From a virus (Duplodnaviria; Heunggongvirae; Uroviricota; Caudoviricetes): 64,000 nt of DNA. The notes beneath the pieces are model-generated. The model was not told where the DNA came from, did no database searches, and saw only the letters and a program-made list of their open reading frames with translations. A program made the translations under genes and the position numbers. Shown here one piece after another: positions 11,838 through 56,944 of this stretch. The stretch lies in the IMG/VR virus record IMGVR_UViG_3300027710_000010, positions 53,763 through 117,762 of that record; one strand, written 5' to 3'. How positions within the stretch are numbered: the first letter of the stretch is position 1; every line of letters starts with the position of its first letter.

Positions 11838-11843
11838 ATGTTT

Positions 11844-11919: not shown

Positions 11920-11924
11920 TAATT

Positions 11925-12008: not shown

Positions 12009-12013
12009 ATGTT

Positions 12014-12088
12014 TGGCGCCGCCGACGGGAATCGAACCCGCCTTAGTTGGATAGACAATCCAGTGCCCTCCCAGAGGACTACAACGGC
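12014..12088 (-). tRNA. tRNA with atypical anticodon loop TTGTCTA (GTC with pyrimidine at 37); identity uncertain
   Basis: GCCGTTG-TA-GTCC-TCTGGGA-GGGC-A-CTGGA-TTGTCTA-TCCAA-CTAAG-GCGGG-TTCGATT-CCCGT-CGGCGGC-G-CCA. Confidence 0.45.
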
Positions 12089-12092
12089 AAAT

Positions 12093-12178
12093 TGGTGGAT
12101 GTGGTAAGATTCGAACTTACTACACTATGTGAACGAGGTTACAGCTCGCCGTGGCTCTCCAGCTCCGACCGCACATCC
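12093..12178 (-). tRNA. type II tRNA with anticodon GTA (second Tyr-like)
   Basis: 86 nt; anticodon arm GCGAG-CTGTAAC-CTCGT, variable arm CAC-ata-GTG, T-arm GTAAG-TTCGAAT-CTTAC, acceptor GGATGTG/CACATCC, CCA. Confidence 0.6.
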
Positions 12179-21143: not shown

Positions 21144-22571
21144 ATGTCTGGAACTAACGTAATTTTTCTAACCTCAGTCATGACTCACTGGCTTGAAAGA
21201 AGTATTGGTGCATACCAACTTTCCAATTTTATAAAGAATCATGGTTACACAACTCAAGTGATAGATTTTATTCACTTACTGCCCAAAGATGTATTAATGA
21301 TGCTTCTTAAAAAATTTACTAGCGACAAAACTCAAGTATTAGCAGTGAGTACAACCTTTATATCTGAAGATGCCTATATCGGGGCTAACGCTATTAACAA
21401 GCAAAAGAAACCCGGAGTTATGTTTGAAAGTTTATCAACATGCTTAATAGAATATAAAAAACTTTTCCCCCATGTGAAAATAATTGCCGGAGGAGCTAAA
21501 GCAATGAGGTTTTATAATACTGGATTGTTTGACTACTGTTTTACAGGTTACGGTGAATTGGCATTACTAAACTTCTTAAAAGCAGGATCAAATAGGACTG
21601 GTAAAATTATTGAAGGCGATCTTTATCTTGCTAAATTTAAAGCTCATGAAATCGATCACAAATTTTCCGACAATGATGTTATTTTCTCCAACGAAACTTT
21701 GCCTATTGAAATAAGTCGAGGTTGTATATTTAAATGCAAATTTTGTGCGTATCCATTAAATGGCAAGAGTAAACTAGATCACGTTAGGGATACACACTTA
21801 ATAAGAGATGAGTTGATCAGCAATTATGAAAAGTGGGGGATCACAAATTATATCATAAGCGACGATACATTTAACGATAGTAATGATAAATTAAAAACTC
21901 TACATGATATGATTGTAGATCTGCCTTTTAAAATTAACTTTGTGTGTTATCTTCGTCTAGACTTACTTTATCATTTTAGGGATTCACAATTAGAGATGTT
22001 AGAAAACATGGGGTTAAAATCTTGTCACTTTGGTGTTGAAAGTTTTAATCCGACAACGGCAAAATTTATTGGTAAGGGCATGAGTGAAAATAAAACTAAA
22101 GATTTTTTATTATTTTTAAAAGATCGATGGAAGGATAAAATTAGTTTCATGTGTACGTTTATTACTGGGTTACCATTTGAAACAAAAGAAAGTTGTATAG
22201 AAACTGGTAAGTGGTGCAACGATAACAATATAACATTTTGGATGATGCCATTGTTTATAGATCCTGATAGAACATACAAAAGTGACATAGACATCAACTA
22301 TGAAAAATATGGATATAAGTTAGAGGATGACTTATCGTGGACTACTGAGTATATGACAATGGATGAGGCTATTCAAATTGCAAGTGAGTTTACTTCGGAT
22401 CCTAGTAAACACAAAATTTCTGCTTGGAATATGTTTGCATTACTATCACTAGGCGTATATACTGCTGACGAACTGTATCATTTATCTTATTCAGATTTAG
22501 ATAAAGATCAAGGCAGGACACTGATGCAGAAAAAGATGACTCAATATGTACAAAGGTTAATGACAGTGTGA
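21144..22571 (+). CDS. B12-binding-domain radical SAM enzyme (paralog)
   Basis: SRGCIFKCKFCAYP; overall co-linear with 16929..18485. Confidence 0.7.
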   Translation: MSGTNVIFLTSVMTHWLERSIGAYQLSNFIKNHGYTTQVIDFIHLLPKDVLMMLLKKFTSDKTQVLAVSTTFISEDAYIGANAINKQKKPGVMFESLSTCLIEYKKLFPHVKIIAGGAKAMRFYNTGLFDYCFTGYGELALLNFLKAGSNRTGKIIEGDLYLAKFKAHEIDHKFSDNDVIFSNETLPIEISRGCIFKCKFCAYPLNGKSKLDHVRDTHLIRDELISNYEKWGITNYIISDDTFNDSNDKLKTLHDMIVDLPFKINFVCYLRLDLLYHFRDSQLEMLENMGLKSCHFGVESFNPTTAKFIGKGMSENKTKDFLLFLKDRWKDKISFMCTFITGLPFETKESCIETGKWCNDNNITFWMMPLFIDPDRTYKSDIDINYEKYGYKLEDDLSWTTEYMTMDEAIQIASEFTSDPSKHKISAWNMFALLSLGVYTADELYHLSYSDLDKDQGRTLMQKKMTQYVQRLMTV

Positions 22572-40616: not shown

Positions 40617-41339
40617 TTAGTTAAACGATTTGGTTACTGACACTACAAAAGTATCTTTGTAAAGACGTTGACCATTTATTGTATTAGCAGATTGGAATGT
40701 GCTTCCTTGATTGCTGTTTGTGTAATACTTACCAGCAATATTCCAACCTTGCAAGTCATATGCAACACCGACATTGTAGTCTGTATAGTTCAATGATGAG
40801 CTGTTTTCAACTAGTGTGCGGCCAACATGACCAACTGCCGACAATTTGCCAACTAGTGGAATTGTTGCGTCTGCCTGTAGGTAGTTAGAACCTTTACTGT
40901 TAGCAGTACCAAAGTAGTTGCTTAATGATTGACTAGCTTTAACACTAACCAACTCTTTGTAACCTACACCAACGTACAATTCGTTCGTGTCAAAGTTATT
41001 ACCACCTGTGGTAGTTGTAGCACGTGGATAGAAATAATTCATAGTACCAACGTCGATTGTAACGCCTTTATAAACTTCTTTCTTAAAGCCAGCGTATACA
41101 TCTGACTCAACGCCTGCGCCATTTGTATACATTTGACTTGAAACAGAACTGTTCCAGTTACCGACGTATAGCCCACTTGAGTGTGCGTAATCAATACCGC
41201 CTTGTACTGCTGGAGCATTTTGGGTTTGACTTACGCCACGGAAACGGTAGTCGGAGGTCAAGCCCAAATTGCCTGTAACCTGTGCTTGGGCAACAGAGAT
41301 ACCTGCTACCATCATCAATGCTAAAAATAGCTTTTTCAT
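40617..41339 (-). CDS. outer-membrane beta-barrel protein (TIGR02001-like)
   Basis: Signal peptide ending AQA; TSDYRFRGVSQT N-terminal block; alternating amphipathic strands; C-terminal F. Confidence 0.55.
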   Translation of the reverse strand: MKKLFLALMMVAGISVAQAQVTGNLGLTSDYRFRGVSQTQNAPAVQGGIDYAHSSGLYVGNWNSSVSSQMYTNGAGVESDVYAGFKKEVYKGVTIDVGTMNYFYPRATTTTGGNNFDTNELYVGVGYKELVSVKASQSLSNYFGTANSKGSNYLQADATIPLVGKLSAVGHVGRTLVENSSSLNYTDYNVGVAYDLQGWNIAGKYYTNSNQGSTFQSANTINGQRLYKDTFVVSVTKSFN

Positions 41340-41424
41340 ATTTGTATTTCCTTTTAATAAAGTGACTGTACGTCACTTGTACATTATATAGTATTGTTGA
41401 TTCTAGAGCAAGATTTTTATAGTC

Positions 41425-41450
41425 AAAAGAAACCCGCCGAAGCGGGTCCT
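41425..41450 (-). terminator. rho-independent terminator at 3' end of tmRNA coding piece
   Basis: GGACCCGC-ttcg-GCGGGTTTCTTTT on minus strand. Confidence 0.7.
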
Positions 41451-41850
41451 ACTATTTTGGATGACACGGTATAGTTACCGCGCAAGGGCTGTTTTTTAGG
41501 CAGCTAATTCGAAACGCTCAGCGTTTGCGGCGCGAGCCACAGAAGCTGGAACTTCGAAAAACTTGAAAGTAGATGTTTTTGCATTTACTAGATTTTGCTT
41601 GATTTAGAGTCATCGCCTACTCAGTTGCCGTCTTCAATATCTCACCCTGTCGAAACCATGGCAGGCCCATTAGTAAGTATGCTAACCGGTATACAAAGCC
41701 TTCTGTACACCACGGAGGAATAAATTCCTGCTTATCCGTTAAACTGTCGCTAACATACTTGCTGGTGGACCTGGCGGGAGTCGAACCCGCGTCCAAGATG
41801 CCTTTTCTCTAAAGGAATTACAACTATACCGCTATTATACGGCATAATAT
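41430..41850 (-). ncRNA. ssrA: tmRNA (ssrA), apparently circularly permuted two-piece form; tag reading frame 41531..41496 encodes (A)ANAERFELAA-stop
   Basis: Minus strand contains a tRNA-like acceptor/T-arm ending ...GCGGG-TTCGACT-CCCGC-CAGGTCC-A-CCA at 41763-41790. About 110 nt downstream lies a 5' acceptor strand GGGCCUGCCAUGGUUUCGACAGGG resembling the E. coli tmRNA 5' end, then GCC GCA AAC GCT GAG CGT TTC GAA TTA GCT GCC TAA, then a terminator. Confidence 0.7.
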
Positions 41851-41914
41851 TTATCCTGTCAAACTTTTTGGTTGTTAAAGCAATAAATACATACATAACA
41901 TTGGGAGCGAATCA

Positions 41915-42196
41915 ATGGGTGATATTTTTAAAATTATTGGCGACTTAGGTATGCCAGTAGCGGCAGCACTAGCAGGTGGGTACTTCGTGTACCTTACTAT
42001 CAAATTGTTATTACAAGGAGTACTTGGTTCAATCAAAGGTATGGCCGGTATTATCACAGCACTAGATAACCGTGTCAAAACCATGAACCACGACGTTGTA
42101 CGTATTGATACTATCGTATCGAATGCATTAGGGTTGCGCCCAGATGTAGAGCGAATTGCTCGTGCTGATGGTAAGAATGATGCAAGAAGGGATTAA
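41915..42196 (+). CDS. small membrane protein
   Basis: 93 aa, hydrophobic N-terminal half; first gene of a plus-strand block. Confidence 0.45.
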   Translation: MGDIFKIIGDLGMPVAAALAGGYFVYLTIKLLLQGVLGSIKGMAGIITALDNRVKTMNHDVVRIDTIVSNALGLRPDVERIARADGKNDARRD

Positions 42197-42198
42197 TT

Positions 42199-42408
42199 AT
42201 GTTGTACATTGATTACTCTTGGGACCTTAGTCCAAGTGGTATTAGATTAGATGAAGAACTTAACATAGACAAATTAGGCTGGAAGGCCGGGGATCTGTTC
42301 GAAGTTACAAACACCAACGGTCGAGCGATGTTAAGAAAAGTAGATCCTGTAGTAGCATTTGCTAAGGGATATAGAGTAAACTTTGGAGAAGAAAATGGAC
42401 GTAGTTGA
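42199..42408 (+). CDS. hypothetical small protein
   Basis: 69 aa ORF. Confidence 0.4.
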   Translation: MLYIDYSWDLSPSGIRLDEELNIDKLGWKAGDLFEVTNTNGRAMLRKVDPVVAFAKGYRVNFGEENGRS

Positions 42409-42718
42409 GTTAGTCAATAAGTATGGCTTTCCAATTGTCATGGCAGTTGGAATGGGCTTCATTATCAAGTACGTTTGGGAATGGGCTACAAAGGAAGTTA
42501 AACCAGTTATCTCAGAAGCCAATACAGTGCTGATTGCGCTAATTGATCGTATACGTATGTTAGACAATGACTTGATTCGATTGAATCAAAAAGTAAATAC
42601 AGTACTGCACTTGCGAGGCAAGACTATTGAATATGAACGTGTTGAAGCTGAGAAAGAAATTAATGAAGTTAAACAAAAGAAAGAAGATGATAAAACTGCT
42701 AGTGCAGGAGAGTCATAA
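42383..42718 (+). CDS. hypothetical membrane/coiled-coil protein
   Basis: 111 aa, one TM segment. Confidence 0.45.
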   Translation: MEKKMDVVELVNKYGFPIVMAVGMGFIIKYVWEWATKEVKPVISEANTVLIALIDRIRMLDNDLIRLNQKVNTVLHLRGKTIEYERVEAEKEINEVKQKKEDDKTASAGES

Positions 42719-42838: not shown

Positions 42839-43552
42839 ATGGATAAAATCATAGCAACGTTAGTGATGACGCACATCACAATAGTATGTGTAACATTATA
42901 CTTACACAGAAGTCAAGCACACAGGGGCATTGAGTTTCATCCCGTAATAAGTCACTTCATGAGACTTTGGTTATGGATGACTACAGGGATGACTACCAAG
43001 CAATGGGTAGCTATACATCGTAAGCATCATCAAAATACAGATGTAGAAGGTGATCCGCATAGTCCGCATGTGTTCGGAATTTGGCAACTAGTTTTTGGTG
43101 GTGTTAAATTTTATAATCTAGCAGGTAAAGATGCACACATGGTTATGAAATACGGCATGGGCACACCTAAAGACTGGATTGAACGCAAACTTTATACACC
43201 CCACCATCGCCTTGGCATTCTCTTAATGCTAGTCATAGACTTATTGTTCTTTGGGCCTTGGGGATTTTTAGTGTGGGGTGTTCAAATGATATGGATACCA
43301 TTCTGGGCCGCAGGATTTATTAACGGCATCGGACACTGGTGGGGTTATCGCAATGGCGAAACTAAGGACCGCAGTCACAACGTCAGTCCTTGGGGAATTT
43401 TAATTGGTGGAGAAGAACTACATAACAATCATCACCTAGATCCTGCTAACCCTAAACTAAGTCGTCGCTGGTTTGAGTTTGATATTGGCTGGATGTGGTT
43501 TAAGATTTTTGAATTGCTAAAGTTAGCTAAACTTAGAAACTCTTCGCAATAA
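42839..43552 (+). CDS. membrane fatty-acid desaturase family protein
   Basis: Histidine boxes HRKHH and HNNHH with hydrophobic spans. Confidence 0.7.
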   Translation: MDKIIATLVMTHITIVCVTLYLHRSQAHRGIEFHPVISHFMRLWLWMTTGMTTKQWVAIHRKHHQNTDVEGDPHSPHVFGIWQLVFGGVKFYNLAGKDAHMVMKYGMGTPKDWIERKLYTPHHRLGILLMLVIDLLFFGPWGFLVWGVQMIWIPFWAAGFINGIGHWWGYRNGETKDRSHNVSPWGILIGGEELHNNHHLDPANPKLSRRWFEFDIGWMWFKIFELLKLAKLRNSSQ

Positions 43553-44282
43553 ACTCTGCTTCGGGGATACGGGTATGTGTATTTTTACTACCTAACACAA
43601 CAACAATACGTCTTCCTATTTCAGTATCTAGCATCATAACAATACAACCTCCACTGGCTCTTATGTAGCCAGTTTTGCTGACTATGAAGTTATGACGTTT
43701 GCCAATAATAGGATTTGTGTTATTAAAAATAAACCACTGTTTCTTTAGTTTAATTTTAACTTGGCTTGTTTTACTAGTTTCAACAATTTCTGGATACTTT
43801 GCTGACTCTAAAACAATTTTAATTAATTCTTCAGCTGTGCTGACATTCATTACACTGAGTCCAGTTGGGTCTATATACTTTGTTTTTGTTAGCCCAAGTT
43901 GTTTGGCTTTTGCGTTCATAGCACGTATACATTCAACAGTTCCGCCGGGGTAATGCTCGCAAAGCATTAGAGAGGCGGTGTTATCGCTTTTAACCATTGC
44001 CAACTGTATTAGTTCTTTGCGTGTGTATGGTTTGATAAAATCATTTAAATCTTGATTTGCATCTAATACAACCATAACAGTCATCAATTTAGTAATACTG
44101 GCAATGCTACGCTGTTGCTCAGTATTTTCGCCTTGTATTATTTTGCCGTCGGCACTTGCCACCAACCACGATGTTGCTGTAATTGGCACAGGTTTGGCAT
44201 TGGAGGCGTTTGCTTGCCCAACATATAAAAGGGCAAAAAATGCCAATAGATATAAGATTCTATACATTTGTCTAGTATACAC
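43533..44282 (-). CDS. D-alanyl-D-alanine carboxypeptidase/endopeptidase (peptidase S11)
   Basis: Signal peptide; SITKLMT (SxxK), SDN and C-terminal KTG-like block. Confidence 0.7.
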   Translation of the reverse strand: MYTRQMYRILYLLAFFALLYVGQANASNAKPVPITATSWLVASADGKIIQGENTEQQRSIASITKLMTVMVVLDANQDLNDFIKPYTRKELIQLAMVKSDNTASLMLCEHYPGGTVECIRAMNAKAKQLGLTKTKYIDPTGLSVMNVSTAEELIKIVLESAKYPEIVETSKTSQVKIKLKKQWFIFNNTNPIIGKRHNFIVSKTGYIRASGGCIVMMLDTEIGRRIVVVLGSKNTHTRIPEAEFIAKSF

Positions 44283-44303: not shown

Positions 44304-46358
44304 TTATTTTTCGTGTGCAACAAATTCACCGTTCCAGTTGTCGCCCAAATCTTGGTGTTTCATAAACTCGCAACGTTCAATCCAAATCTTATAGTACTTG
44401 TCCATTTGTCCGCCAAAGTTACCCTTTAGCTTTTTACACATAGCGGCAGCTTCGTCAAACTTTTTAGCTTTGTATAAGTCATGCATTACTTCGTGTGCTA
44501 TCTTATCTCTAGTGTAATCAACACCACGAGTACGTAACACAGTATAAATTAAGTCTGCTACTGTCTTGCCTTTTGGTTGCAAGTTGTCTAGCAACAAGTA
44601 GAAGAAATCATCTTTAGTTCTGTTGTATGTTTCTGCCCCAACAATGGCCAATACACCGTACGCTTTACAACGTGCTTCTAAACGTGCCGCAGTACTAACC
44701 ATGTCACCTAGAATGTCATAGCTGTGACGTTCTGTTGAACCCATCTCACCGATAAAGCCAATACCTGTGTTACAACCCCAACCCATTGCGGCTGGCGGTA
44801 AACCTTGTGCTTCCATTAGCTTGGTATATTCGTCTACAGCATCCAACATTTCTAATCCTACCTTAACGATAGTACGAGCATGATTAGGATCTTCAATAGG
44901 AGCACCGTGTATGTGCATTGACGCATCACCTACATACTTGATAACCATGCCCTTGTTATCTAACATTGGCTGACTGATAGCATCCATGTATCCGTTCATG
45001 TACTTGCCTAGCCCAGCGACGTCATCTCCATAGTGTTCGCCAATTGGTGTAAAGCCACGTAGGTCACTAAACATAACACTTACGTCTTTTCGCACACCAC
45101 GCTTGATTAAGTCTGGATCTTTTTGTAACAGCTCTACTACTTCTTTTGAACAGTATCCAGCAAACTGTTTCTTAATAGCTTGCTTCTGTAAGAACTCGCT
45201 TACAAACTTAACGCCATAAGTATGCAGAGCGACAAGAATAAGACCAAACGAGATTGCTGTCGCGTCTGATAAGATGAGCCAGCTATTGAAAGCGTACATA
45301 GTACCAGGAATGATGGCACCAACAATAACCACAGTAGCACAAATGCCAACATAAGTCCACCTCGATAAGAAAATTAATAAAATGCCAAATGCTAGTAATG
45401 CTAAAACTTCAACTCCCTCGGCATAGTCGGGACGTTGTATAACTACTCCATTAACCATTGTGCCTATTGCGGCTGCTTGTACATCCTGTGGCCATACAGC
45501 GCCCTTGCTTGTTGGCACTGGATTGGCAATACCTGCGGCTGTTGGTCCTACGATAACAATAGCGCCCCCAAAATCTTTAGGTAGCTCCATTAGACTTACC
45601 TGTTTATTTTCTTGGCTCCAGTCAATCCATACACGACCCAACGCATCAGTAGTAATTGGACCAAATTTAGGAATTCGCATTTTTTCAACACCACCAGCGA
45701 ATAGCTTAATCTGTGTTGTTGAATCTCCTGCTACTACACGAAGTGTCTCCATAGCAAGGCTTGGATAGATATCTCCGTTAACTGTAATGACTAATGGTAG
45801 TCGGCGATTAACACCGTCAATTTCTTCTTTAGTATGAGTTGTGCCAACTCCTATGGCATTATTTTCCAACATTGGCACATTGGCAATTAGACCACCGTAC
45901 GGAGTAATGCTGTCTACAAATTCTGAATTGATAACTGCTGTTCCAGGCTTGCGTGGACTGTTCTTAGTTTTACCCTCGTAAGGTGTTGATGAAAGAACTA
46001 CAGGATATTGTTTTAGGGCATTTGCGAGAACAGCATCGCCACCAGTACGATCAGACTCAGCCATGATAACATTGAGCACAACAAGCCCAGCGCCACGATC
46101 GTACAAATCTTTAATAATCTTAGCATACTCTGCCCTCGGTAATGGCCATTGGCCATACTTATCTAAACTAGCTTCGTCTATGTTAACTGTATAGATATTA
46201 TTTTCTGTAGGTGCTTTGCTAGTAATTAGTGTATCAAAATAACGTAGCCTTACACTTTCAACAAATGTAGGATCTGCAACACGTATGCTCAATACTAACG
46301 CTAGTGTTAGTAGTGCAGTCCAAGGGCTTAACAATGTTTTCTTAAATTCTATTTTCAT
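44304..46358 (-). CDS. CHASE2 sensor domain-containing adenylate/guanylate cyclase
   Basis: N-terminal TM plus periplasmic CHASE2-like domain, 3 TM helices, class III cyclase core (FSDLRGFT). Confidence 0.7.
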   Translation of the reverse strand: MKIEFKKTLLSPWTALLTLALVLSIRVADPTFVESVRLRYFDTLITSKAPTENNIYTVNIDEASLDKYGQWPLPRAEYAKIIKDLYDRGAGLVVLNVIMAESDRTGGDAVLANALKQYPVVLSSTPYEGKTKNSPRKPGTAVINSEFVDSITPYGGLIANVPMLENNAIGVGTTHTKEEIDGVNRRLPLVITVNGDIYPSLAMETLRVVAGDSTTQIKLFAGGVEKMRIPKFGPITTDALGRVWIDWSQENKQVSLMELPKDFGGAIVIVGPTAAGIANPVPTSKGAVWPQDVQAAAIGTMVNGVVIQRPDYAEGVEVLALLAFGILLIFLSRWTYVGICATVVIVGAIIPGTMYAFNSWLILSDATAISFGLILVALHTYGVKFVSEFLQKQAIKKQFAGYCSKEVVELLQKDPDLIKRGVRKDVSVMFSDLRGFTPIGEHYGDDVAGLGKYMNGYMDAISQPMLDNKGMVIKYVGDASMHIHGAPIEDPNHARTIVKVGLEMLDAVDEYTKLMEAQGLPPAAMGWGCNTGIGFIGEMGSTERHSYDILGDMVSTAARLEARCKAYGVLAIVGAETYNRTKDDFFYLLLDNLQPKGKTVADLIYTVLRTRGVDYTRDKIAHEVMHDLYKAKKFDEAAAMCKKLKGNFGGQMDKYYKIWIERCEFMKHQDLGDNWNGEFVAHEK

Positions 46359-46822
46359 GATGGTCTTCTTACCTCTACATCGTGCAGGGAACCGTCTTCT
46401 TGTGTCCAATTTGGCAACAGCTTACTAAAAATTCGACCATATACTCCTGATCTACCACTAGACCCTTGTATATCATATTCTATCACTCGAATTTTGTCGT
46501 TGTATTTTACTATAAAATCTTTTATTATATCAGTGATTGCTGATATAACTTGTGCCGCATTACCAGTTCCGAGCATGTTAACTTTTCCGTTGCCGGTGAA
46601 ACTGATCTCCCAATAACCGCTGTAGTCGACTTCTTCGTTTTCGGCGTCGTCATCATAACCTATTTCATCGCGGTCCGCATCTACGTGATCGTATTCTGAA
46701 TTGCTGGCCCTGAAGTCGTACTCCACACCACCCACAAAAAATTCAGCGTTGGCGTAGCGTTCTCCGCGTGAGGTCCATTTCCACGGAACTGAAGTCGCCG
46801 CCATTATTTCGTCGATTCTCAT
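46355..46822 (-). CDS. hypothetical acidic protein
   Basis: 155 aa. Confidence 0.45.
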   Translation of the reverse strand: MRIDEIMAATSVPWKWTSRGERYANAEFFVGGVEYDFRASNSEYDHVDADRDEIGYDDDAENEEVDYSGYWEISFTGNGKVNMLGTGNAAQVISAITDIIKDFIVKYNDKIRVIEYDIQGSSGRSGVYGRIFSKLLPNWTQEDGSLHDVEVRRPS

Positions 46823-47373
46823 TCTCGTCTGTCCGTTTCAGGACCCTTTGGCATATGATCCTTGCCGTAGCTAATCTTACTACCTAGTATTGCTTCCAAT
46901 GCAACATGTAACGCTGGTCCTGACAAATGTTTACGTAGCCAACGTTCTGCTAAATTATTGATAACCTTTTCATTAGCATGTACACGCCCACCGCCTTTAA
47001 TCTTATCATGTACATAAGCATGGCAAGCTTCGTGTACAGCAACGGCAACATCCTTGGCTGCTTTACTTTCTAAATTTGGTACATTGATACTTCCGCCTGG
47101 ACCAGATTCTTCAGTATCTCTAAACATGGGTGGTTCATTACTCTGGTAAACATAATACATGCCAGGCTGTAATTCATTATCGTCGTCTGTTACTCTGTTA
47201 CTGCCTAGGATATTTCTGATAGCATCATAGCAAGTCCAAAGTGTTGGAGCAGGTGCGCCGCCGACTTGTGTTGTTGGCAGCATGGGTTTGTCTTCAGGAT
47301 CGAAGTCCCCATACCGTTGTTTTAATTCGGCATCGCCGGCTTCTGCTTCAGATAGTATTTCGTGTATTTTCAT
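46819..47373 (-). CDS. putative zinc metallopeptidase-like protein
   Basis: HEACH (HExxH) motif. Confidence 0.4.
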   Translation of the reverse strand: MKIHEILSEAEAGDAELKQRYGDFDPEDKPMLPTTQVGGAPAPTLWTCYDAIRNILGSNRVTDDDNELQPGMYYVYQSNEPPMFRDTEESGPGGSINVPNLESKAAKDVAVAVHEACHAYVHDKIKGGGRVHANEKVINNLAERWLRKHLSGPALHVALEAILGSKISYGKDHMPKGPETDRRE

Positions 47374-47390
47374 ATAAATTATTTATCGTA

Positions 47391-47414
47391 AAAAAAGCCT
47401 GCCGAAGCAGGCTT
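47391..47414 (-). terminator. rho-independent terminator
   Basis: AAGCCTGC-cgaa-GCAGGCTT with T-run on minus strand. Confidence 0.7.
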
Positions 47415-47429: not shown

Positions 47430-49988
47430 TTAGAATCTGTAAACTACACCTGCTGTAAACACATTAGAACCACCTTGCTTAGTTTGAAGTCTATCAGCAC
47501 GAATGTTAAATGTTAGGTCGTCTTTCTCTTGTTGCATTCCTACACCAATTTGATTAACACCATCTGTATGGTGCAATGCTGTAGCATTGAACATGTCGTA
47601 TTTGGCTACTAACCCAACAGTTCCAAAACCGTAGTTGTCATTAACAACACCAATTTTATTGGATACTGTTGTGCCGGGTAACACTTCTATTGCGCCATTG
47701 TAGCCAGCAACTTTACGAGTTCCGTATGTTGCGCCAATTACTGGACGAACGATTTCTTCAGGATCTAATGCCGGACCTACTGCACGTAATGTAATGGAAC
47801 TATCTCTTCCTGACGTCTTACCTGACACGTTAGGTAACGAGCGATTAATTGGCTGCGTCGCTAATAATCTATTATCGCCGGATGTATTGACAGTTACTGT
47901 AGGAGTTGCACTGGCATTGTAGTCAGTCATACTGTGCTGTATAGTACTGCTTAAATCAAATCCGCCAACATCTTTCTTAGACAATGTTGCACCTAATTGA
48001 ACAGTATCTGCCTTAACATTGCTGTTATTGCCAGATAAGTATGTGTCGAGTTTATTAACACCAAAGCCTAATGTCATATCGCCTTCGATGTCTTTACTAT
48101 GTCCAACTCCAAACAAATTGGTGTAACCTGCATAGCCATCGTTCTGGTGATCATAACGTTTGTAGACAACTGTCTTACCAAACTCAGTACCTCTAGACAT
48201 CATGCTGTGTAGTTTGTTTACTGTTTGAACTTGGTCAGTTCTTAAGTTAACTGACACTGCGTATTTGGCATCACGTCCTACGCTGTCACCTGTTACTACA
48301 TCATAGTCACCTGTAACTGTTGATGATTCATCGGCTGTAGCACTAGCATCAGCATAAACACTTCCAGGAGCAAAACTATCTGCTGTAGTTGTGGATACAA
48401 CTCTACCGTAAGTAAAACGTGTAGGTGTAGTTACAGTGTATAGTTCATTGGCTTTAATAACTCCTGCGGCATTTACAGTTATTGATTTACCGTTGTTTAT
48501 TGTTGTTGGAGTTGACTTGGTGTTAATTAAGCTACCTGCATCAATTCCATTAGACACACGTTGTATCTCACCAATAACTTCAGATCCTATTTTTGTATCT
48601 AACACACCCTTAGTTACAGTTCTAGTAAAATCTTCAACCTTAATTACATTGTAAGTTTCATCAACAGTGGATGTTGTATTAACTGTGCTGGTTGTATCTG
48701 TATAGCTACTAGTAGGAGCAAAGTCGTCTGTAGTTACAGTAGTAGTTGACCTTGCGTAAGTAAACAACGTTGGGGTTGTTGATGTTCTAGTGATCAGTCC
48801 TGAAGTAGTTGCAGATCCTGTACGAATAGAGTAATCAGCATTTGGTGTCACTGTAGGAGTAGCCAATGTTACTGTGCCAACATCCACATGTGTTCTGGCA
48901 GCACTGTTAGGCGCCACAGAAGTTGCTACATCGTTATGCGTAGTGTCTACAATGTTTGAATAATATTCTGATACAGTGATAGGAGATCCAGCTGCCGAAG
49001 TTGTAGAGTTATCGCTGTATGTAGTAATTACCGTAGTTGGAGTAGTAGTTAATCGTCCAACACTAGTGTTTGCTACATTGTTAAATGTTCTTGTTAAGAA
49101 GTCGCCAGCAATCAAAGCAGAAGATGTTACTACACTGCCGCCTGTACTATCTAAGAAAGATGAAGTACCATTTGTTGTTGAGGTACTGACCACAGTCACT
49201 GCTGGAGGAGTAGGCGTTACTGATCCACCACTTGTGTCTGGCGCACTAGTTCCTGGGTTAGGAGCAACAGCACCAAAGGATGTTCCATTCAATGAAGTCG
49301 TTCCAACTACTTCGTCAACATACAGTACAGGACTTAATGCTGTGTCATCTAAGTTGAACACACCAAAACCTAATAAGTAGTTGCCAGTCTCAGTTACTGA
49401 ATAAGTGGCAGTTTGCCAGCCAGTTGAGCCGTAGCTACCTGTTGAGTAGTCTCCTGTACCTGGGTTGGTAAATCCTAACAAAGCGTACTGACTTGTATAG
49501 TTGTTCAATACCGCTGTGGTAGACGGACTATCTATCTTTACCAGTGTAGCAATTGATCCGTCATTGAACGGGACGTAATCTGTTGAGATATATTGCCATG
49601 CCAGTGAAAATGTTTGTCCTGCTGTTAATGCAACAGTCTTACTGGCCCACGATGCTGTAGTAGGATTGCCTTGGCCGTTGCCCGTTGTTTGCGCCTGTGT
49701 AGTAAGTGTTGTTTGTATACCAGTGGCACTAGACGACGTTAGACTTAGGGCACTGGTCATATCGCTAAATGACCCGGTAGCTATTGACAACTTACCCATG
49801 TAGCTACCGTAGGGATTAATTGTCCATGTATTTGACCCAGCTTGTAAAGTTTGAGAACCAACAGCACTAAGACCGTTGCCGCTCCAGCTTCCGATATTTC
49901 CATCTTCAAAGCCAATGTTCTGCGCCATTGCAGACTGTGCCAACATCATAGCCACAAATGTAGCTAAGATTTTTTTCTTAAATTTCAT
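47430..49988 (-). CDS. large Ser/Thr-rich outer-membrane protein (autotransporter-like)
   Basis: Signal peptide; hundreds of residues of T/S/N/G-rich repeats; C-terminal amphipathic beta-strands ending AGVVYRF. Confidence 0.55.
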   Translation of the reverse strand: MKFKKKILATFVAMMLAQSAMAQNIGFEDGNIGSWSGNGLSAVGSQTLQAGSNTWTINPYGSYMGKLSIATGSFSDMTSALSLTSSSATGIQTTLTTQAQTTGNGQGNPTTASWASKTVALTAGQTFSLAWQYISTDYVPFNDGSIATLVKIDSPSTTAVLNNYTSQYALLGFTNPGTGDYSTGSYGSTGWQTATYSVTETGNYLLGFGVFNLDDTALSPVLYVDEVVGTTSLNGTSFGAVAPNPGTSAPDTSGGSVTPTPPAVTVVSTSTTNGTSSFLDSTGGSVVTSSALIAGDFLTRTFNNVANTSVGRLTTTPTTVITTYSDNSTTSAAGSPITVSEYYSNIVDTTHNDVATSVAPNSAARTHVDVGTVTLATPTVTPNADYSIRTGSATTSGLITRTSTTPTLFTYARSTTTVTTDDFAPTSSYTDTTSTVNTTSTVDETYNVIKVEDFTRTVTKGVLDTKIGSEVIGEIQRVSNGIDAGSLINTKSTPTTINNGKSITVNAAGVIKANELYTVTTPTRFTYGRVVSTTTADSFAPGSVYADASATADESSTVTGDYDVVTGDSVGRDAKYAVSVNLRTDQVQTVNKLHSMMSRGTEFGKTVVYKRYDHQNDGYAGYTNLFGVGHSKDIEGDMTLGFGVNKLDTYLSGNNSNVKADTVQLGATLSKKDVGGFDLSSTIQHSMTDYNASATPTVTVNTSGDNRLLATQPINRSLPNVSGKTSGRDSSITLRAVGPALDPEEIVRPVIGATYGTRKVAGYNGAIEVLPGTTVSNKIGVVNDNYGFGTVGLVAKYDMFNATALHHTDGVNQIGVGMQQEKDDLTFNIRADRLQTKQGGSNVFTAGVVYRF

Positions 49989-50010
49989 AGTTTTCGCTCC
50001 TATTTGAAAA

Positions 50011-51108
50011 TTAATTTTGAGTGATAGTAATCATACTAGTCGCTCCTTTGTTTATGTTTTGTATAATAGTCTGACCATCTTGAATAATTGTTAGTGTAGC
50101 ACTCCTATTCGTGTCAAATGTCACTGTTGCATTGTGACTCGCTGCCTTATACAATGTTACCTGACTAGCATCATCATTATAATAATACATCAACCCTAGG
50201 GGCTTATTGTAACTGTATCCGGGTAGTATTGGGTCGTCTAATTCATTTGATAGAAATGATCTATTTTGTTTGTCCAAATCACTTTCTGTGTAAAATTCTA
50301 ATAGATCAGCGTTTAAATCATTTCGATCTAATGCTTTATTATCATCAAGTTTGTTTTCTTCTAGTCCATTAAATTTCAATAGATCAATATTCAGTTCGTT
50401 AAAATCTAACCCAGCACGATCTCGTTTAGTGTTGACACTATCGTCATTTACTTCTGGCGGTTTGCTAACAATTAACAAGTTATTAATGTTGGCTTGATCT
50501 ATTTTAACCACTGCAGGCTCGCTTGGTCGGGTATACGCACTATTAACTAATGTTGCTTGGTACGGCACGTCCAATAACACTATTCCGGCTAATGTGCTAA
50601 CTTCAATAGCGCCAGTGACACATGCGCCTTTGTCATCACAACTAGGCAATAGCATGACAAGACTTCGACCTAACTCGTCTACAGTCATACTAAAATCAGT
50701 GCCCCGTACTGCGATAGTTGCTGTTGGAGTTTTTATTGCGACTTGTTGAGGATTGTTTTTAGCAATCTGACCACTAGCATAACGAGCAGTACCCAGCGCC
50801 ATATTAATAGCTAACTTGCCTGTACCTTTTTTTGGGTCATAGACAAAATCATCAATAATCAACTTACTCTGTTCTGTAATTTTAACAGTAGTTGCATCAT
50901 CAAAAGTAATTGTTGCCTTAGCCTTTGCTGTGCTAATAGCATCGTTCATTTCTACGCCCGTGTTGATGCTCGAGGATAAACTTTTCTTATCTCGTACGAT
51001 CTCTGTTGGGCCCGACTGCTCAGTAACCTTGCCCACACCTGCAAACCCGTTAATCGGTTTGAGTAACAGAAATATTATTATTAGAGCCGTTACTGTTGAT
51101 AGATGCAT
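50011..51108 (-). CDS. FecR-domain protein
   Basis: N-terminal TM; AIKTPTATIAVRGTDFSMTV block typical of the FecR domain. Confidence 0.5.
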   Translation of the reverse strand: MHLSTVTALIIIFLLLKPINGFAGVGKVTEQSGPTEIVRDKKSLSSSINTGVEMNDAISTAKAKATITFDDATTVKITEQSKLIIDDFVYDPKKGTGKLAINMALGTARYASGQIAKNNPQQVAIKTPTATIAVRGTDFSMTVDELGRSLVMLLPSCDDKGACVTGAIEVSTLAGIVLLDVPYQATLVNSAYTRPSEPAVVKIDQANINNLLIVSKPPEVNDDSVNTKRDRAGLDFNELNIDLLKFNGLEENKLDDNKALDRNDLNADLLEFYTESDLDKQNRSFLSNELDDPILPGYSYNKPLGLMYYYNDDASQVTLYKAASHNATVTFDTNRSATLTIIQDGQTIIQNINKGATSMITITQN

Positions 51109-51703
51109 TCTTAGCCATGCCGCCAGTTTGTAATAATGTAACCAAATTTGGTGTACCTGGAGTTCCACCACCTGCTACTGTGATATCAGCTGTATGCATA
51201 CCTGCACCGCTTGTAGTATGCGATACGTTATTATTACTACCTGCAATATTGATAACACTAGACAACACATTACCGGCTAACATCTGCGTGACATTATTAT
51301 TGTTACCAGTTACATTATTAGTAATAGTATCAGCAATACATGTTTCGCATTTGATAAGTTGGTTGTTTCCAGACCCGTCAGCTGACACGTTAACAATAGT
51401 TCCTGTACCTTTAGTCATGCTGTCCAGCACTAAACTAAGAGTGTTGCTTGCACCAATTTGAGTTACCGTAACGACGTTGAAGTCGCCTTTAATCATTGCC
51501 GGAGTTGTTGAACTTGTTTTTGCAACGTCTCCGTTGACTAGGTTTCCTGCGCCCGTTTGTGTTATACTTACAGTAGCATTATCGCCCACCTGTTCTACGT
51601 ACACATCATTGGCCCATGCTCCCGATGACAACATTCCAGTTGCCATTAGTATTGCGAATACTTTTCTCGACAATCCGCCACCGCCTTTTATTCTTTTAAT
51701 CAT
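51050..51703 (-). CDS. curlin-repeat-like secreted protein
   Basis: Signal peptide then imperfect repeats (ATVSITQTGAGN, NVVTVTQIGASN, NISVTQTD) resembling CsgA/CsgB repeats. Confidence 0.5.
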   Translation of the reverse strand: MIKRIKGGGGLSRKVFAILMATGMLSSGAWANDVYVEQVGDNATVSITQTGAGNLVNGDVAKTSSTTPAMIKGDFNVVTVTQIGASNTLSLVLDSMTKGTGTIVNVSADGSGNNQLIKCETCIADTITNNVTGNNNNVTQMLAGNVLSSVINIAGSNNNVSHTTSGAGMHTADITVAGGGTPGTPNLVTLLQTGGMAKNASINSNGSNNNISVTQTD

Positions 51704-51743
51704 TTTACTTCGCTCCTTGATACATCGCTAGATTGTATCGTTG

Positions 51744-52562
51744 TTAGTTTACTTCTTGATCTATTAAAGGTGCCACCTTTTTAAATCTCCAAATACCCTT
51801 CTTCTCGCCTTGTATTATCATATCATATACTGCCTGTTCGATAGCTACTCGAACAGCATATGTTGTTGGTTCATTTAATGCCATACCATTTTCTAATTCT
51901 AATGCTTTAGTTCCCGCATCCACAAACCTTAATACACCAACGTTGTGCTGTGTGCTGTAAATAGTTTTACTCACAGCGTTCGACAGTAGGATCTCTCCAC
52001 TATTCACGCTTATCAGTCTCAAACTAATCACAACTTCATCAACACGGTACTGCTGACTTCCACCGATGCCTAAAAATCTAGCACCGTTACCTCCACTGCG
52101 AATATTGCTGTCATAGCCAATAATCCCACCTTCAATCATTATACCTGCCACTGTCATTGGTTTAAGTTGCTTCGCATCCTTACCTTCGTATACTTCACGT
52201 TGGTTACGGATCAACTGTCGTTCTTTAATAAGATTATCTAATCCTACACGCTCTACTACTTTAAACCAATTCTTACTGTCCTGCAAGCTCTTGATTAAGA
52301 ATACTTCAGACCCCTGTGTTACTGCTTTACTAAACAATGCTAACTTGTCGTTTGGCTTCATTTGTCCAGTTTTATCTTGGAATCCGTAAACTGCAATAGT
52401 CATCGGAGGCCCATCCAAATCTGGTATCACCTCAGTTAAGCTCTGTCGCGGTTTTAACACTACAGGCCCCTCTTTTTTCGCCATGTCCATATGTACTGCG
52501 GCGCATCCGGAGAGCATTATTGTAAAAAATATTGCTAGTATAAGTCTCATATTAGAATGCAA
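51744..52562 (-). CDS. csgG: CsgG-family secretion channel lipoprotein
   Basis: Lipobox LSGC; TIAVYGFQDKTGQ, IMIEGGIIGYDSN, GGNGARFLGIGGS blocks align with E. coli CsgG. Confidence 0.8.
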   Translation of the reverse strand: MHSNMRLILAIFFTIMLSGCAAVHMDMAKKEGPVVLKPRQSLTEVIPDLDGPPMTIAVYGFQDKTGQMKPNDKLALFSKAVTQGSEVFLIKSLQDSKNWFKVVERVGLDNLIKERQLIRNQREVYEGKDAKQLKPMTVAGIMIEGGIIGYDSNIRSGGNGARFLGIGGSQQYRVDEVVISLRLISVNSGEILLSNAVSKTIYSTQHNVGVLRFVDAGTKALELENGMALNEPTTYAVRVAIEQAVYDMIIQGEKKGIWRFKKVAPLIDQEVN

Positions 52563-52992
52563 AGCTCGCTATAGGTACAATTATTTCAGTGGTGCCAGTG
52601 GGTGCAACGATAACCAACTTTACTTGCCCTAATGTGGTATCTTTAGACCATGTTATTGTTGTACCTTGAAACTCCATAGTTCCAGTATTACCGCTAGTTT
52701 CGGCAAACAACTGATCTGCTAATTGCTTAGATAATTGTGCGTAGATACGTGCTTCTACGTTGACTAGAAATTTAGCTAAGTTGGTACTCTTGGCGGCAGT
52801 TTCTGCTTTGGCAATTGCCGCCGCCTCTTCTGATTTTATCTCTTTCTTCTTGTTTTCTTCCAACTGATGGATCGACAAGACGTGAGCCGAGAACCCATTG
52901 CCTGGTATAAAGGCTGGGCTTTGGAAGTTATGTAATAGTTCAGCTGCCGACACACACGTAGGCAACAGTACTAGTAATAATAGTTTTTTCAT
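52552..52992 (-). CDS. csgF: CsgF-like curli assembly protein
   Basis: Signal peptide then NFQSPAFIPGNGFSA resembling the CsgF FxNPxFGGNP N-terminus; adjacent to csgG. Confidence 0.55.
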   Translation of the reverse strand: MKKLLLLVLLPTCVSAAELLHNFQSPAFIPGNGFSAHVLSIHQLEENKKKEIKSEEAAAIAKAETAAKSTNLAKFLVNVEARIYAQLSKQLADQLFAETSGNTGTMEFQGTTITWSKDTTLGQVKLVIVAPTGTTEIIVPIASFAF

Positions 52993-53067: not shown

Positions 53068-53095
53068 AAAAAAGGACTCCTAAGAGTCCTTTTAT
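53068..53095. terminator. bidirectional rho-independent terminator
   Basis: AAAAAAGGACTC-ctaa-GAGTCCTTTT. Confidence 0.7.
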
Positions 53096-54942: not shown

Positions 54943-55626
54943 TTAGTGTATTTCAGGGAACAAGCAATCCTGAATGAACACTGCTACATCGTCGTCGTTT
55001 AGCCCTAAACTGGACATGACTTTAGGAGTATGCGGGTTTTGTTTTTGATTCTGTGCGTAGTAATTCTGTGCATCTTTGGTATTGACCGCTTGACCTTTAG
55101 ATTCGTCTACACATTCCAAATAATGATTTATTACAATGTGTGCCAATGATTCAAGTTGCTTTAGTTCGTCACCATCACTAACATTACCTGCGGCAATCAT
55201 TCCTGGACTAAAGATACGTTCTGCCCAATCTGGAAGTTTACGTTTCTTGTTCCATTCATACCTTTCAGCTTCTTCACCAAAGTATTGGATCATTGGATGA
55301 TTAGCATCACCTGCAGGACTATAGTCAATAAAGCATCCAGTAATTTTGTTTCTACCTGCTACTACATCAAAACCAAAGATAGGAGCAGGATTATCTAAAT
55401 GCGGGAAAATGCAACAATGCATCATCCATAATCCCTTAGTCTCACGAGCATCTACAACATCAATGTGTGCTCGGCGATATCGACTGCTGGCCCAAACTTT
55501 GTTGACCCAGCCAGGTTGATTGAATCGATCCATACCAGGTTCATGAATTATACTGCCAGTTGCATAAAACTGTGACTCAAAATATTGCTCAATTTTAATT
55601 AGCGTGTCCCAAACATTACTCTCCAT
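54943..55626 (-). CDS. ferredoxin-dependent bilin reductase (PcyA/PebS-like)
   Basis: HIDVVDARETKGLWMMHCCIFPH block typical of the FDBR family; adjacent to heme oxygenase. Confidence 0.65.
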   Translation of the reverse strand: MESNVWDTLIKIEQYFESQFYATGSIIHEPGMDRFNQPGWVNKVWASSRYRRAHIDVVDARETKGLWMMHCCIFPHLDNPAPIFGFDVVAGRNKITGCFIDYSPAGDANHPMIQYFGEEAERYEWNKKRKLPDWAERIFSPGMIAAGNVSDGDELKQLESLAHIVINHYLECVDESKGQAVNTKDAQNYYAQNQKQNPHTPKVMSSLGLNDDDVAVFIQDCLFPEIH

Positions 55627-56161
55627 GGTACAAGTCTCGCATCATCTTAATAGCATACTCAAATGCCACACGAGCCTCATCACCTAAGTCGTCTGTAAGT
55701 GTTACACGAATGGCCATCTTCATAGCATCGGCGTTCTCAAAGTCGTAGAACTTGCCACTGCTGATATGTGCTACCTGCTTCTTAATGATTTGACCACCGA
55801 ATAGGTCGCCCATATGGCGGCAGTATAAATGCGCCTTAACAAGATGTTTGCGTTGTTCATCATTACCTAGTTTGTGTAAGTATGCTTGGTACTCAAGTGT
55901 TGCAGGAGTTAGGTAACAGTAACTACCATCATCCAACTCTAGGAAGTCTGCAAGTATTCCCTTGAGGCGAGGTAGTGCTGGCATTGTGACAAGGAATCCT
56001 TGACGCTGACAATACCATTCAATGGGGTCATAAATTGCAAGTAAGTTATACAGATAGTTCCTGTAGTCTTCCTTACCGATCTTGCCGCTAAGTAACATCT
56101 TAGCGAACGTTGTTTTCTCTGCTTCGTGATGTAGATCTTGTGTAATCTCTCGTAAGCTCAT
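55616..56161 (-). CDS. heme oxygenase
   Basis: LREITQDLHHEAEKTTFAKMLLSGKIGKEDYRNYL resembles the HO-1 proximal helix. Confidence 0.65.
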   Translation of the reverse strand: MSLREITQDLHHEAEKTTFAKMLLSGKIGKEDYRNYLYNLLAIYDPIEWYCQRQGFLVTMPALPRLKGILADFLELDDGSYCYLTPATLEYQAYLHKLGNDEQRKHLVKAHLYCRHMGDLFGGQIIKKQVAHISSGKFYDFENADAMKMAIRVTLTDDLGDEARVAFEYAIKMMRDLYHGE

Positions 56162-56460
56162 TCTTCTTCCAATTTAATTTGTAATGGAAAGCCACTTGCA
56201 CGAGCAAGTTGTGTTGACTCTACTGCTTTTGCTTCAGCAATTTCAAAACCATAGGTTCCAGCCACACCACTGCCGTCTTCATGAATTTGCGAAGTGATAT
56301 TTCTAGCTACATCATCTGTATGCTTAAACACTTCAGTAAGTATACTGATTACAAAATCCATCGGGGTATGGTCATCATTTAGTAGGATAACTTTCCATTT
56401 TTTAGGCTCTTGTATTTTTTGTTTAATTTTTTCGTCTAATTTAATATCTGCTGTGGTCAT
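56158..56460 (-). CDS. clpS: ATP-dependent Clp protease adaptor ClpS (start trimmed to second Met)
   Basis: KVILLNDDHTPMDFVISIL core. Confidence 0.7.
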   Translation of the reverse strand: MTTADIKLDEKIKQKIQEPKKWKVILLNDDHTPMDFVISILTEVFKHTDDVARNITSQIHEDGSGVAGTYGFEIAEAKAVESTQLARASGFPLQIKLEEE

Positions 56461-56475
56461 AGTTCTCTCCAGAAG

Positions 56476-56495
56476 TAGGGGAAGTTTCCTTCCCC
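56476..56495 (-). terminator. hairpin terminator after the sHSP gene
   Basis: AGGGGAAG-tttc-CTTCCCCT. Confidence 0.5.
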
Positions 56496-56503
56496 TTATT
56501 ATA

Positions 56504-56944
56504 TTACTTAACCTCGACGATGTCAATCAAGCGTGGTTTCTTATCCTCAGGGATAATTCGCTCAATAGCAATCGACAAAATGCCGTCTTTAATTTCGGCA
56601 CCCTTAACTATCATGTGTTCAGCCAATGTAAACTGACGGACAAAATCACGGCTGCTCAATCCCCTGTGCAGGTATTGACGCTGTGCTGGTTCATCAGATG
56701 GTTGACTTACCCCCTTGATAGTAAGTTGCTCTTGGTCAACTTCAACAGTGATTTCATCTTTCTTGAAGCCTGCTACTGCTACTTCAACAGAGTAATGATC
56801 ATCATCTGTTTTTACTACATTGTAGGGTGGATAGTTTGTGTTAAGTTGATTTGCGAATCTGCTCTCAAATGTGTCAAACATTTGATCAAATCCTACAAGT
56901 GCTCTGTTTAGAGCTTGTGTGTCGAATCGTGTTAATGCGTTCAT
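56504..56944 (-). CDS. small heat-shock protein (Hsp20/alpha-crystallin)
   Basis: YNVVKTDDDHYSVEVAVAGFKKDEITVEV alpha-crystallin domain. Confidence 0.75.
   Translation of the reverse strand: MNALTRFDTQALNRALVGFDQMFDTFESRFANQLNTNYPPYNVVKTDDDHYSVEVAVAGFKKDEITVEVDQEQLTIKGVSQPSDEPAQRQYLHRGLSSRDFVRQFTLAEHMIVKGAEIKDGILSIAIERIIPEDKKPRLIDIVEVK

Follow-up and report, generated by a model that had tools for sequence, protein, structure and literature searches.

This study concerns a gene cassette within a 64,000-nucleotide stretch of viral DNA (positions 53,763 to 117,762 of the IMG/VR record IMGVR_UViG_3300027710_000010, Caudoviricetes), which is referred to as the window. The cassette is the type VIII (curli-like) secretion module known from marine pelagiphages, carried here by a divergent, large T4-like phage. 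It encodes a CsgF-like protein, a CsgG channel, a curlin-repeat protein, a FecR-domain protein, a predicted autotransporter and a nucleotide cyclase with a CHASE2 domain. The first five of these had been proposed in an initial annotation made from the sequence alone, and open reading frame (ORF) listing together with Pfam scans recovered all five on the minus strand between 47430 and 52992. From the identity, linkage and conservation of the parts we infer export, polymerisation, adhesion and synthesis of cyclic AMP (cAMP). The reading favoured here, to which we give a probability of about 0.6, is that curli-like fibres and displayed head domains remodel the surface of the infected cell while the FecR-domain protein and the CHASE2 cyclase link the state of the envelope to cAMP.

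Conserved gene order and phage context

The arrangement of the cassette is far beyond what chance would produce, since the same order recurs in two cultured phages and in the loci recovered from IMG/VR. The IMG/VR scan gave 72 of these related loci, on contigs of up to 364 kb, and every locus that was long enough had the order csgF-csgG-curlin-FecR, then 0 to 7 kb of other sequence, then the CHASE2 cyclase. This order is kept over CsgG identities ranging from 50% to 89%. Megablast of the region against phage genomes gave no match, and a protein search was needed because the relatives are too divergent at the DNA level. A tblastn search of phages with CsgG returned 7 records: HTVC008M (2), strains of Methylophilales phage Melnitz (4) and Salmonella phage S.Kent 1-2-1 (1.5 kb, unannotated). 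The annotated genes of HTVC008M and Melnitz run CsgF, CsgG, curlin protein, FecR-domain or hypothetical protein, variable protein and adenylate/guanylate cyclase, and in both of these cultured, lytic phages the cassette lies between replication and baseplate genes.

The phage context supposed in the initial annotation was confirmed by this placement inside two cultured lytic phages and by the content of the window, which encodes rIIA, rIIB, NadV, NatV, an endolysin-like protein, 37 tRNAs and a transfer-messenger RNA (tmRNA). The rIIA protein is at most 37% identical to that of any cultured phage. G+C content is uniform across the region at about 0.40. The ratio of nonsynonymous to synonymous substitution rates (dN/dS) was 0.04-0.28 in all five core genes (about 0.05 for csgG and about 0.1 for the cyclase gene against relatives), and these values are rough because dS is saturated.

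The same observations bear on the idea, barely credible, that the segment belongs to the host chromosome or was recently inserted from bacteria and has no function in the phage. Every part of the cassette has bacterial homologues, and the whole cassette was found on five contigs of metagenome-assembled genomes (L078-L082: NZAX01000026.1, FZLS01000092.1, NHJA01000016.1, PBLX01000006.1 and JADHSL010000081.1) from bins of five bacterial groups, namely Flavobacteriaceae, Rhodobacteraceae, Pelagibacter, Legionellales and Pirellulales. However, all five contigs also carry the small phage genes found beside the cassette in HTVC008M and Melnitz, and a baseplate-region gene is present on one of the contigs as well, so that they are most likely mis-binned phage DNA. 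Among 185,579 species, no genuine bacterial genome had a close homologue of the FecR type. A host chromosome beside a prophage, which the initial annotation had named as the outcome that would overturn it, is likewise at odds with the internal position of the cassette in HTVC008M and Melnitz and with the uniform G+C content, and purifying selection argues against a segment without function.

The export channel, its partner and the presumed substrate

The csgG gene (51744-52550, minus strand) encodes an outer-membrane lipoprotein channel of 268 aa counted from its ATG. Its identification as CsgG stands on a strong match to Pfam PF03783 (E 7.8e-54, 182.6 bits), an end-to-end alignment of residues 7-263 with the E. 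coli CsgG structures 3x2r and 6l7a (E 4e-48) and a lipobox, LSGC. The score against the NCBIfam equivalog was 179 bits, below the 505-bit threshold. The csgF gene (52552-52992, minus strand) encodes a secreted protein of 146 aa. It matches PF10614 at E 1.3e-11 (45.3 bits, cutoff 25.8) over profile positions 6-132 of 132, which upholds the CsgF-like assignment, and it matches phrog_35372 at E 6e-40. Seven divergent phage copies share the N-terminal motif F-x-x-P-x-F-x-x-G-x-G-x-S without variation, and similarity to E. coli CsgF itself is weak (E 0.13, N-terminal 45 residues only). By homology, CsgF would be the partner that caps the CsgG channel.

The gene for the curlin-repeat protein (51050-51703, minus strand) encodes a secreted, CsgA/B-like protein of 217 aa that scores above the cutoff of PF07012 (22.9 bits, cutoff 20.7), as expected from the imperfect curlin-like repeats that had been noticed before. 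Across 46 homologues the Gln/Asn/Gly ladder positions are invariant. An AlphaFold2 model with a mean predicted local distance difference test score (pLDDT) of 80 and a predicted template-modelling score (pTM) of 0.77 contains 16 short strands that repeat about every 11 residues. The score against the NCBIfam CsgB equivalog was 18 bits, below its threshold of 165 bits. This protein is presumed to be both the export substrate and the fibre subunit.

The constriction loop of the channel is unlike that of E. coli (QFKPYP-ASNFSTAV, corresponding to QMKPNDKLALFSKAV in the window protein) and the periplasmic gate CsgE is absent. Both features would fit a proposal made for Melnitz from structural modelling and synteny (PMC9004378), in which CsgG, with or without CsgF, is a gated, 'secretin/pinholin-like' pore that times lysis by depolarising or permeabilising the envelope. 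The presence in the window of rIIA and rIIB, which are lysis-inhibition genes in T4, would also fit. However, CsgG resides in the outer membrane and cannot depolarise the inner membrane, and in every locus the gene after csgG encodes a conserved CsgA-like substrate that has a signal peptide, whereas the Melnitz paper treated the substrate as absent. The endolysin-like gene is 9 kb away and unlinked to the cassette, and no riboswitch, including the glutamine riboswitch, was detected in the window. A pore for lysis timing is therefore improbable. An ungated CsgG could instead be a route by which the infected cell takes up nutrients or cofactors, as raised in PMC7029224 and PMC9599517, and besides lacking CsgE this phage carries many metabolic genes, including those for NAD salvage and haem/bilin metabolism. 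Import seems about equally improbable, because it leaves CsgF, the curlin protein, the surface proteins of the variable slot and the cyclase unexplained even though all of them are under purifying selection.

Most of the close relatives (L004-L031, at about 10790-11250; for example L004:9995-11137) have a longer CsgG of 354-415 aa, in which a Pro/Glu/Lys-rich linker is followed by a C-terminal domain of about 65 aa. This domain resembles bacterial SH3 domains, with Pfam SH3_4 reaching only E 0.068. The CsgG of the window is without this SH3-like extension.

A predicted autotransporter in a hypervariable slot

The 852-aa protein encoded at 47430-49988 (minus strand) had no Pfam or PHROG match, and PF03797 (Autotransporter beta-domain) gave no match to it even at E 1. 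Its AlphaFold2 model has a pLDDT of 77 overall and about 90 in the head and the barrel. The model comprises a beta-sandwich head (about residues 30-240), a middle part of lower confidence made of long, Thr/Ser-rich beta-hairpins that form a beta-ribbon stalk, a helix (586-600) and a barrel (607-850). In Foldseek searches the barrel matched NalP (1uyn) at E 3.8e-5 with a target-normalised template-modelling (TM) score of 0.66 and a probability of 1.0, and the BrkA, EspP, EstA, Hbp and AIDA-I translocators were also matched, all with probability 1.0. By inspection only, the protein starts with MKFKKKILATFVAMMLAQSAMAQN, a Sec signal, and ends in VVYRF, with a C-terminal aromatic residue. The model identifies it as a probable type Va autotransporter that would export itself and would not be a CsgG substrate, and the match of the modelled barrel to autotransporter translocators is in line with the earlier description of a beta-barrel or autotransporter-like outer-membrane protein.

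The homology of this protein is mosaic. Residues 1-250 are common to about 90 of the 120 best hits listed, at 50-83% identity, and the proteins sharing them have quite different C-termini, whereas residues 464-852 are common to a different set of proteins. The head domain had no match among PDB sequences. In the slot of one related locus this head is joined to curlin repeats (L086, protein P0105; PF07012, 33.6 bits), and in two others it is joined to a PF03797 barrel (L088 and L089, protein P0054; 71.6 bits), which lie on contigs of 205 and 365 kb; one source attributes P0054 to an uncultured Caudovirales phage. Relatives that share the head reach PF03797 at 72-73 bits. Because one head occurs on interchangeable anchors, either curlin repeats or a barrel, it can be argued that selection maintains the surface display of the head. 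The function under selection would then be surface display or adhesion.

The slot between the FecR gene and the cyclase gene is hypervariable, measuring 0 to 7 kb across loci, and in other phages it holds secreted or envelope proteins. Large secreted proteins ending in Phe are found in the clade of the window, curlin-repeat proteins in pelagiphage-type loci (PA14 plus curlin repeats in HTVC008M) and small lipoprotein-like proteins in some loci. Some slot proteins resemble, by eye only, secreted endonuclease I, LpxH and glycosyltransferases. In the window the slot also contains two small genes from the ORF list (46355-47373, minus strand), which encode proteins of 184 aa and 155 aa that have no signal peptides and no significant Pfam, PHROG or NCBIfam match. 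The 184-aa gene recurs in L003, and both genes recur in L023, L028 and L029. The 184-aa protein (46819-47373, minus strand) has a HEACH (HExxH-like) motif, and from this motif it is a possible small metallopeptidase.

The FecR-domain protein and the CHASE2 cyclase

The FecR-domain protein (50011-51108, minus strand) is a secreted protein of 365 aa. The domain itself was confirmed (PF04773, E 3e-11, 44.1 bits with a cutoff of 24, residues 78-166 of the long ORF), and the protein matches phrog_37870 at E 2.5e-89. Five divergent copies all retain the core motifs YASGQIAK and RGTDFSMT together with a pair of Cys residues. However, the initial annotation had placed this protein in the membrane, and that part did not hold. 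The N-terminus resembles a signal peptide and is followed directly by the FecR domain, and because the signal peptide looks cleavable the protein is taken to be periplasmic and not a membrane anti-sigma factor. The cytoplasmic anti-sigma N-terminal domain and the membrane anchor are absent from it, and no sigma factor or TonB-receptor was matched among the cassette ORFs scanned. The phage protein should not be regarded as a FecR-type or iron regulator, and the name FecR is unsuitable for it. The FecR profile had no match among PDB sequences. The C-terminus of the protein (…TLTIIQDGQTIIQNINKGATSMITITQN) looked by eye like curlin half-repeats, and profile-profile comparison did not support this (E 0.13, probability 0.5%). 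A role as a CsgE analogue was also unsupported, with E 0.39 against an E. coli CsgE sequence.

The cyclase gene (44304-46358, minus strand) encodes a 684-aa protein in which a CHASE2 domain (PF05226, E 1.5e-37, 130 bits, residues 36-343), periplasmic and set between transmembrane segments, is fused to a class III nucleotide cyclase domain (PF00211, E 2.4e-14, 53.8 bits, residues 441-599). Both metal-binding Asp residues and the Lys, Asp and Arg of the catalytic set are kept. In the alignment the transition-state Asn is replaced by Ser in the clade of the window (VSTAAR, residues ~575-580), while the other large group has VNLASR. The substrate-specifying residue also differs between phage groups, being Asp or Thr.

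Although it lies outside the interval of the initial annotation, this cyclase is the most constant partner of the cassette. It is found downstream of the FecR gene in all 55 related loci with enough sequence, and the 11 loci without it all end within 2.4 kb of the FecR gene. The two genes directly abut in 7 loci, and the cyclase gene is inverted in 3. A similar adjacency occurs in bacteria. A FecR-profile scan of the 185,579 species genomes found two Acidobacteria loci in which a CHASE2-HD-GYP gene comes straight after a FecR(-OmpA) gene. Published examples are a LysM-FecR gene that adjoins a CHASE2 histidine kinase gene in Burkholderiales and P. aeruginosa (PMC5192318) and, in S. meliloti, smc02177, which encodes a FecR-domain protein and lies beside cyaD1, the gene for a CHASE2 cyclase (PMC5498481). 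Because FecR-CHASE2 adjacency recurs in this way, the phage FecR and cyclase genes are read, by analogy, as a borrowed bacterial envelope signalling pair. The bacterial pair shows no linkage to curli genes (PMC9599517).

The constancy of this pair raises the possibility that the module is mainly a sensor, a cell-surface signalling machine in which CsgG/CsgF, the fibres or the displayed heads form an antenna at the outer membrane, the FecR-domain protein relays an outside cue to CHASE2, and the cyclase as transducer sets the level of cAMP. Candidate cues would be secondary phage adsorption, contact with neighbouring cells, or a polysaccharide, and the cAMP output would tune host physiology or the timing of infection. 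If so, an infecting phage could detect events outside its host cell, such as the presence of other hosts nearby, rival phages or particles, and could use cAMP to alter the physiology of the host or the time of lysis. Several observations agree with this. The FecR-CHASE2 pair is the invariant core of the cassette and turns up in unrelated bacteria, where the output domains differ, an outer-membrane protein is the contact of the FecR domain in FecA-FecR systems (PMC5498481), and CHASE2 acts as a gate, because its removal makes S. meliloti CyaD1 constitutive (PMC5498481). However, contact of the FecR-domain protein with CsgG, CsgF or the fibres is without support. The profile comparisons of its C-terminus with curlin repeats and with CsgE were not significant, and its S. 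meliloti counterpart is dispensable for perception. In addition, the Asn-to-Ser change may weaken catalysis, and a complete export substrate is hard to explain by sensing alone. A module devoted mainly to sensing is therefore possible but unlikely, and surface remodelling coupled to a signalling pair remains the preferred reading.

Proposed mechanism and points against it

In the proposed mechanism, CsgG, CsgF and the autotransporter would reach the outer membrane during infection by way of the Sec, Lol and BAM machineries of the host. CsgG and CsgF would then export the curlin-repeat protein, giving curli-like fibres on the infected cell, and the slot protein would show its adhesin-like head at the cell surface; in relatives that have the head-curlin fusion, the head would probably be placed in the fibre itself. 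The result would be a remodelled, sticky or shielded surface, which would help infected cells to aggregate with hosts nearby, keep other phages out, or do both. Like their bacterial counterparts, which appear to work in this way, the FecR-domain protein and the inner-membrane CHASE2 cyclase would act as an envelope signalling pair that couples the state of the envelope or surface to cAMP. The pelagiphage versions of these genes are expressed in published metatranscriptomes (PMC9599517).

Several points weigh against this reading. The PF07012 score of the curlin protein is barely over its threshold, and its model had no significant Foldseek match in the PDB. No cassette ORF matched CsgE, CsgC/H or CsgD in the Pfam and NCBIfam scans. 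Tyr51 and Asn55 (E. coli numbering), which we take to be constriction residues of the channel, are not conserved in the phage CsgG. The cyclase of the window's clade has Ser for the catalytic Asn, and substitution of this Asn by Ser strongly lowers activity in mammalian cyclase. Shared descent, rather than function, may partly account for synteny among related phages. Melnitz-infected cultures showed no clumping (PMC9004378). Finally, smc02177 is dispensable for signal perception in S. meliloti (PMC5498481), so that a coupler role for the FecR-domain protein is not an established one in any system.

Transcription unit and neighbouring genes

The genes from csgF to the autotransporter look like one transcription unit because two hairpins bracket exactly that interval. 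The first, a terminator-like hairpin found by RNA folding at 53070-53093 (minus strand; ΔG -13.7 kcal/mol, z -4.4), is preceded by an upstream gene of 605 aa and forms the 5' boundary of the csgF unit. The second, found by terminator scan and folding, is an intrinsic-terminator-like hairpin with a U-run (47388-47414, minus strand; hairpin 47395-47414, ΔG -14.1 kcal/mol, z -3.4) directly 3' of the autotransporter stop codon. For each of them, none of 200 shuffled sequences folded equally well. No copy of the T4 late promoter TATAAATA lies near the cassette, the two copies in the window are fewer than expected by chance, and sigma-70-like sites were no more frequent than in shuffled sequence.

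Within this unit the csgG ORF is listed as 51744-52562, and the ATG at 52550, 1 nt from the csgF stop, is most likely the start. The listed FecR ORF is 50011-51171; a start at 51108 gives a 365-aa product that is identical to the metagenomic protein P0121, and the same protein is found on a 299.6-kb contig. The FecR and curlin genes overlap by 59 nt. By sequence inspection, the secreted cassette proteins all have a signal peptide or a lipobox. Further downstream, the two small slot genes and the cyclase gene are joined by 4-nt overlaps.

About 20 nt downstream of the cyclase gene and on the same strand is a gene for a D-Ala-D-Ala carboxypeptidase of family S11 (43533-44282, minus strand; PF00768, E 1.7e-40), which is found at the same position in L009, L012, L015, L018 and L019 and is a peripheral, clade-specific neighbour. 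A fatty-acid desaturase gene (42839-43552, plus strand) also flanks the cyclase, and the desaturase and carboxypeptidase genes both recur beside the cassette in its relatives, which suggests that genes for envelope remodelling form a wider neighbourhood here. Two paralogous small membrane proteins of 93 and 111 aa (41915-42196 and 42383-42718, plus strand) match phrog_18771 at about 1e-29 each, and each has an N-terminal hydrophobic segment. Such small paralogues adjoin the cassette in 56 of the 74 loci, lying upstream of csgF in some and past the cyclase gene in others. The 'histidine kinase' genes reported upstream of csgF in PMC9599517 may be these paralogues; no Pfam kinase domain was found in the two small proteins of the window.

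Between these small genes and a TorF/Gcw_chp putative outer-membrane porin gene (40617-41339, minus strand; PF09694, E 5.6e-53), which is a further envelope gene near the cassette, lies a permuted, two-piece tmRNA (41405-41876, minus strand). It scores 122.8 bits against Rfam tmRNA_permuted and 104 bits against the betaproteobacterial model RF01850, and the tmRNA of Melnitz is also in two pieces. A betaproteobacterial-type tmRNA may hint at a host of betaproteobacterial type. Directly upstream of the cassette, and conserved there in the clade of the window, is a block (54943-56944, minus strand) encoding Hsp20, ClpS, haem oxygenase and a ferredoxin-dependent bilin reductase (PebS/PcyX-like; phrog_7278). 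Elsewhere in the window, 37 tRNA genes on one strand (4981-12178, minus) cover nearly all amino acids. Two radical SAM proteins (16929-18485, minus strand, and 21144-22571, plus strand) have the Pfam domain at residues 188-357 in both, and a third, weaker match lies at 19976-21142.

Comparison with known systems

The initial annotation had called phage-borne machinery of this kind essentially undescribed, and this does not stand: curli genes are annotated in the HTVC008M record, and three papers treat them. PMC7029224 reported CsgF, CsgG, a 'curli-associated protein' and two hypotheticals in metagenomic pelagimyophages, for which it suggested a role in import or 'sibling capture'. In PMC9004378, on the genes of Melnitz, csgA/B was taken to be absent and the gated pore for lysis timing was put forward. 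PMC9599517 described a set of CsgF, CsgG, CsgA/B, FecR, a second CsgA/B, adenylate cyclase and upstream 'histidine kinases' in podo- and myo-pelagiphages, together with its global distribution and metatranscriptomic expression. It estimated that phage curli modules, which are abundant, make up about 0.1% of the viral proteins assembled from ocean viromes, and noted that CsgE, CsgC/H and CsgD are absent from pelagiphage and alphaproteobacterial curli modules. CHASE2 and autotransporters are not mentioned in PMC9599517. Superinfection exclusion, receptor masking and matrix modification, the functions suggested in the initial annotation, are ideas already in print.

Compared with the pelagiphage module (HTVC008M, pelagimyophages, HTVC023P-type podophages and Melnitz), the window has the same csgF-csgG-curlin-FecR-variable-cyclase order, the same small border paralogues, the same absence of CsgE, CsgC and CsgD and the same location in a variable region of a T4-like genome. 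However, its proteins are only 32-50% identical to those of HTVC008M and Melnitz (about 50% for CsgG), its slot holds a predicted type Va autotransporter and not a second curlin-repeat protein, and its cyclase has Ser for the catalytic Asn. Its G+C content of about 40%, its betaproteobacterial-type tmRNA and its upstream block from Hsp20 to bilin reductase also differ, and the contigs related to it reach 300-365 kb, compared with 141-147 kb for Melnitz and HTVC008M.

Curli of E. coli and Salmonella (CsgG-CsgF structures 6l7a and 6si7, CsgA fibril 8enq) share with the phage module CsgG, the CsgF family and, as far as the model indicates, a beta-solenoid curlin-repeat subunit. The phage is without CsgE, CsgC, CsgD and a separate CsgB, and its constriction loop is changed. 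Its curlin subunit has about 7-8 rungs, compared with 5 in E. coli and Salmonella, and is without the Gly-rich N-terminal targeting segment. Like the type Va autotransporters NalP, BrkA, EspP, EstA and AIDA-I, the 852-aa protein has a signal peptide, passenger, linker helix, barrel and terminal aromatic residue, whereas its barrel is undetected by PF03797, its passenger is a head on a beta-ribbon instead of a beta-helix, and it is encoded by a phage. The Caulobacter HfaA/HfaB/HfaD system also combines a CsgG-family outer-membrane protein with curlin-like proteins and anchors an adhesin. However, the phage CsgG is nearer to CsgG than to HfaB (E 1.5e-52 and 2.3e-10, respectively, in NCBIfam), and no HfaD or holdfast polysaccharide genes were seen. 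As in the bacterial FecR/CHASE2 pairs, a secreted FecR-domain protein is encoded upstream of or adjoining a CHASE2 transmembrane protein, and the fusion of CHASE2 to a class III cyclase is the architecture of S. meliloti CyaD1. The bacterial FecR partners usually have a LysM or OmpA peptidoglycan-binding domain, whereas the phage protein has a 200-aa C-terminal extension instead.

The window thus opens no new category of system, and what it adds concerns the range and the composition of a known one. The curli module extends beyond the pelagiphages to a divergent clade with much larger genomes. In the place of the second curlin there is a probable autotransporter, whose head is shared with a curlin-repeat fusion in a relative. 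The phage genes labelled 'FecR' and 'AC' can be recognised, by analogy, as a bacterial FecR-CHASE2 signalling pair and not an iron regulator.

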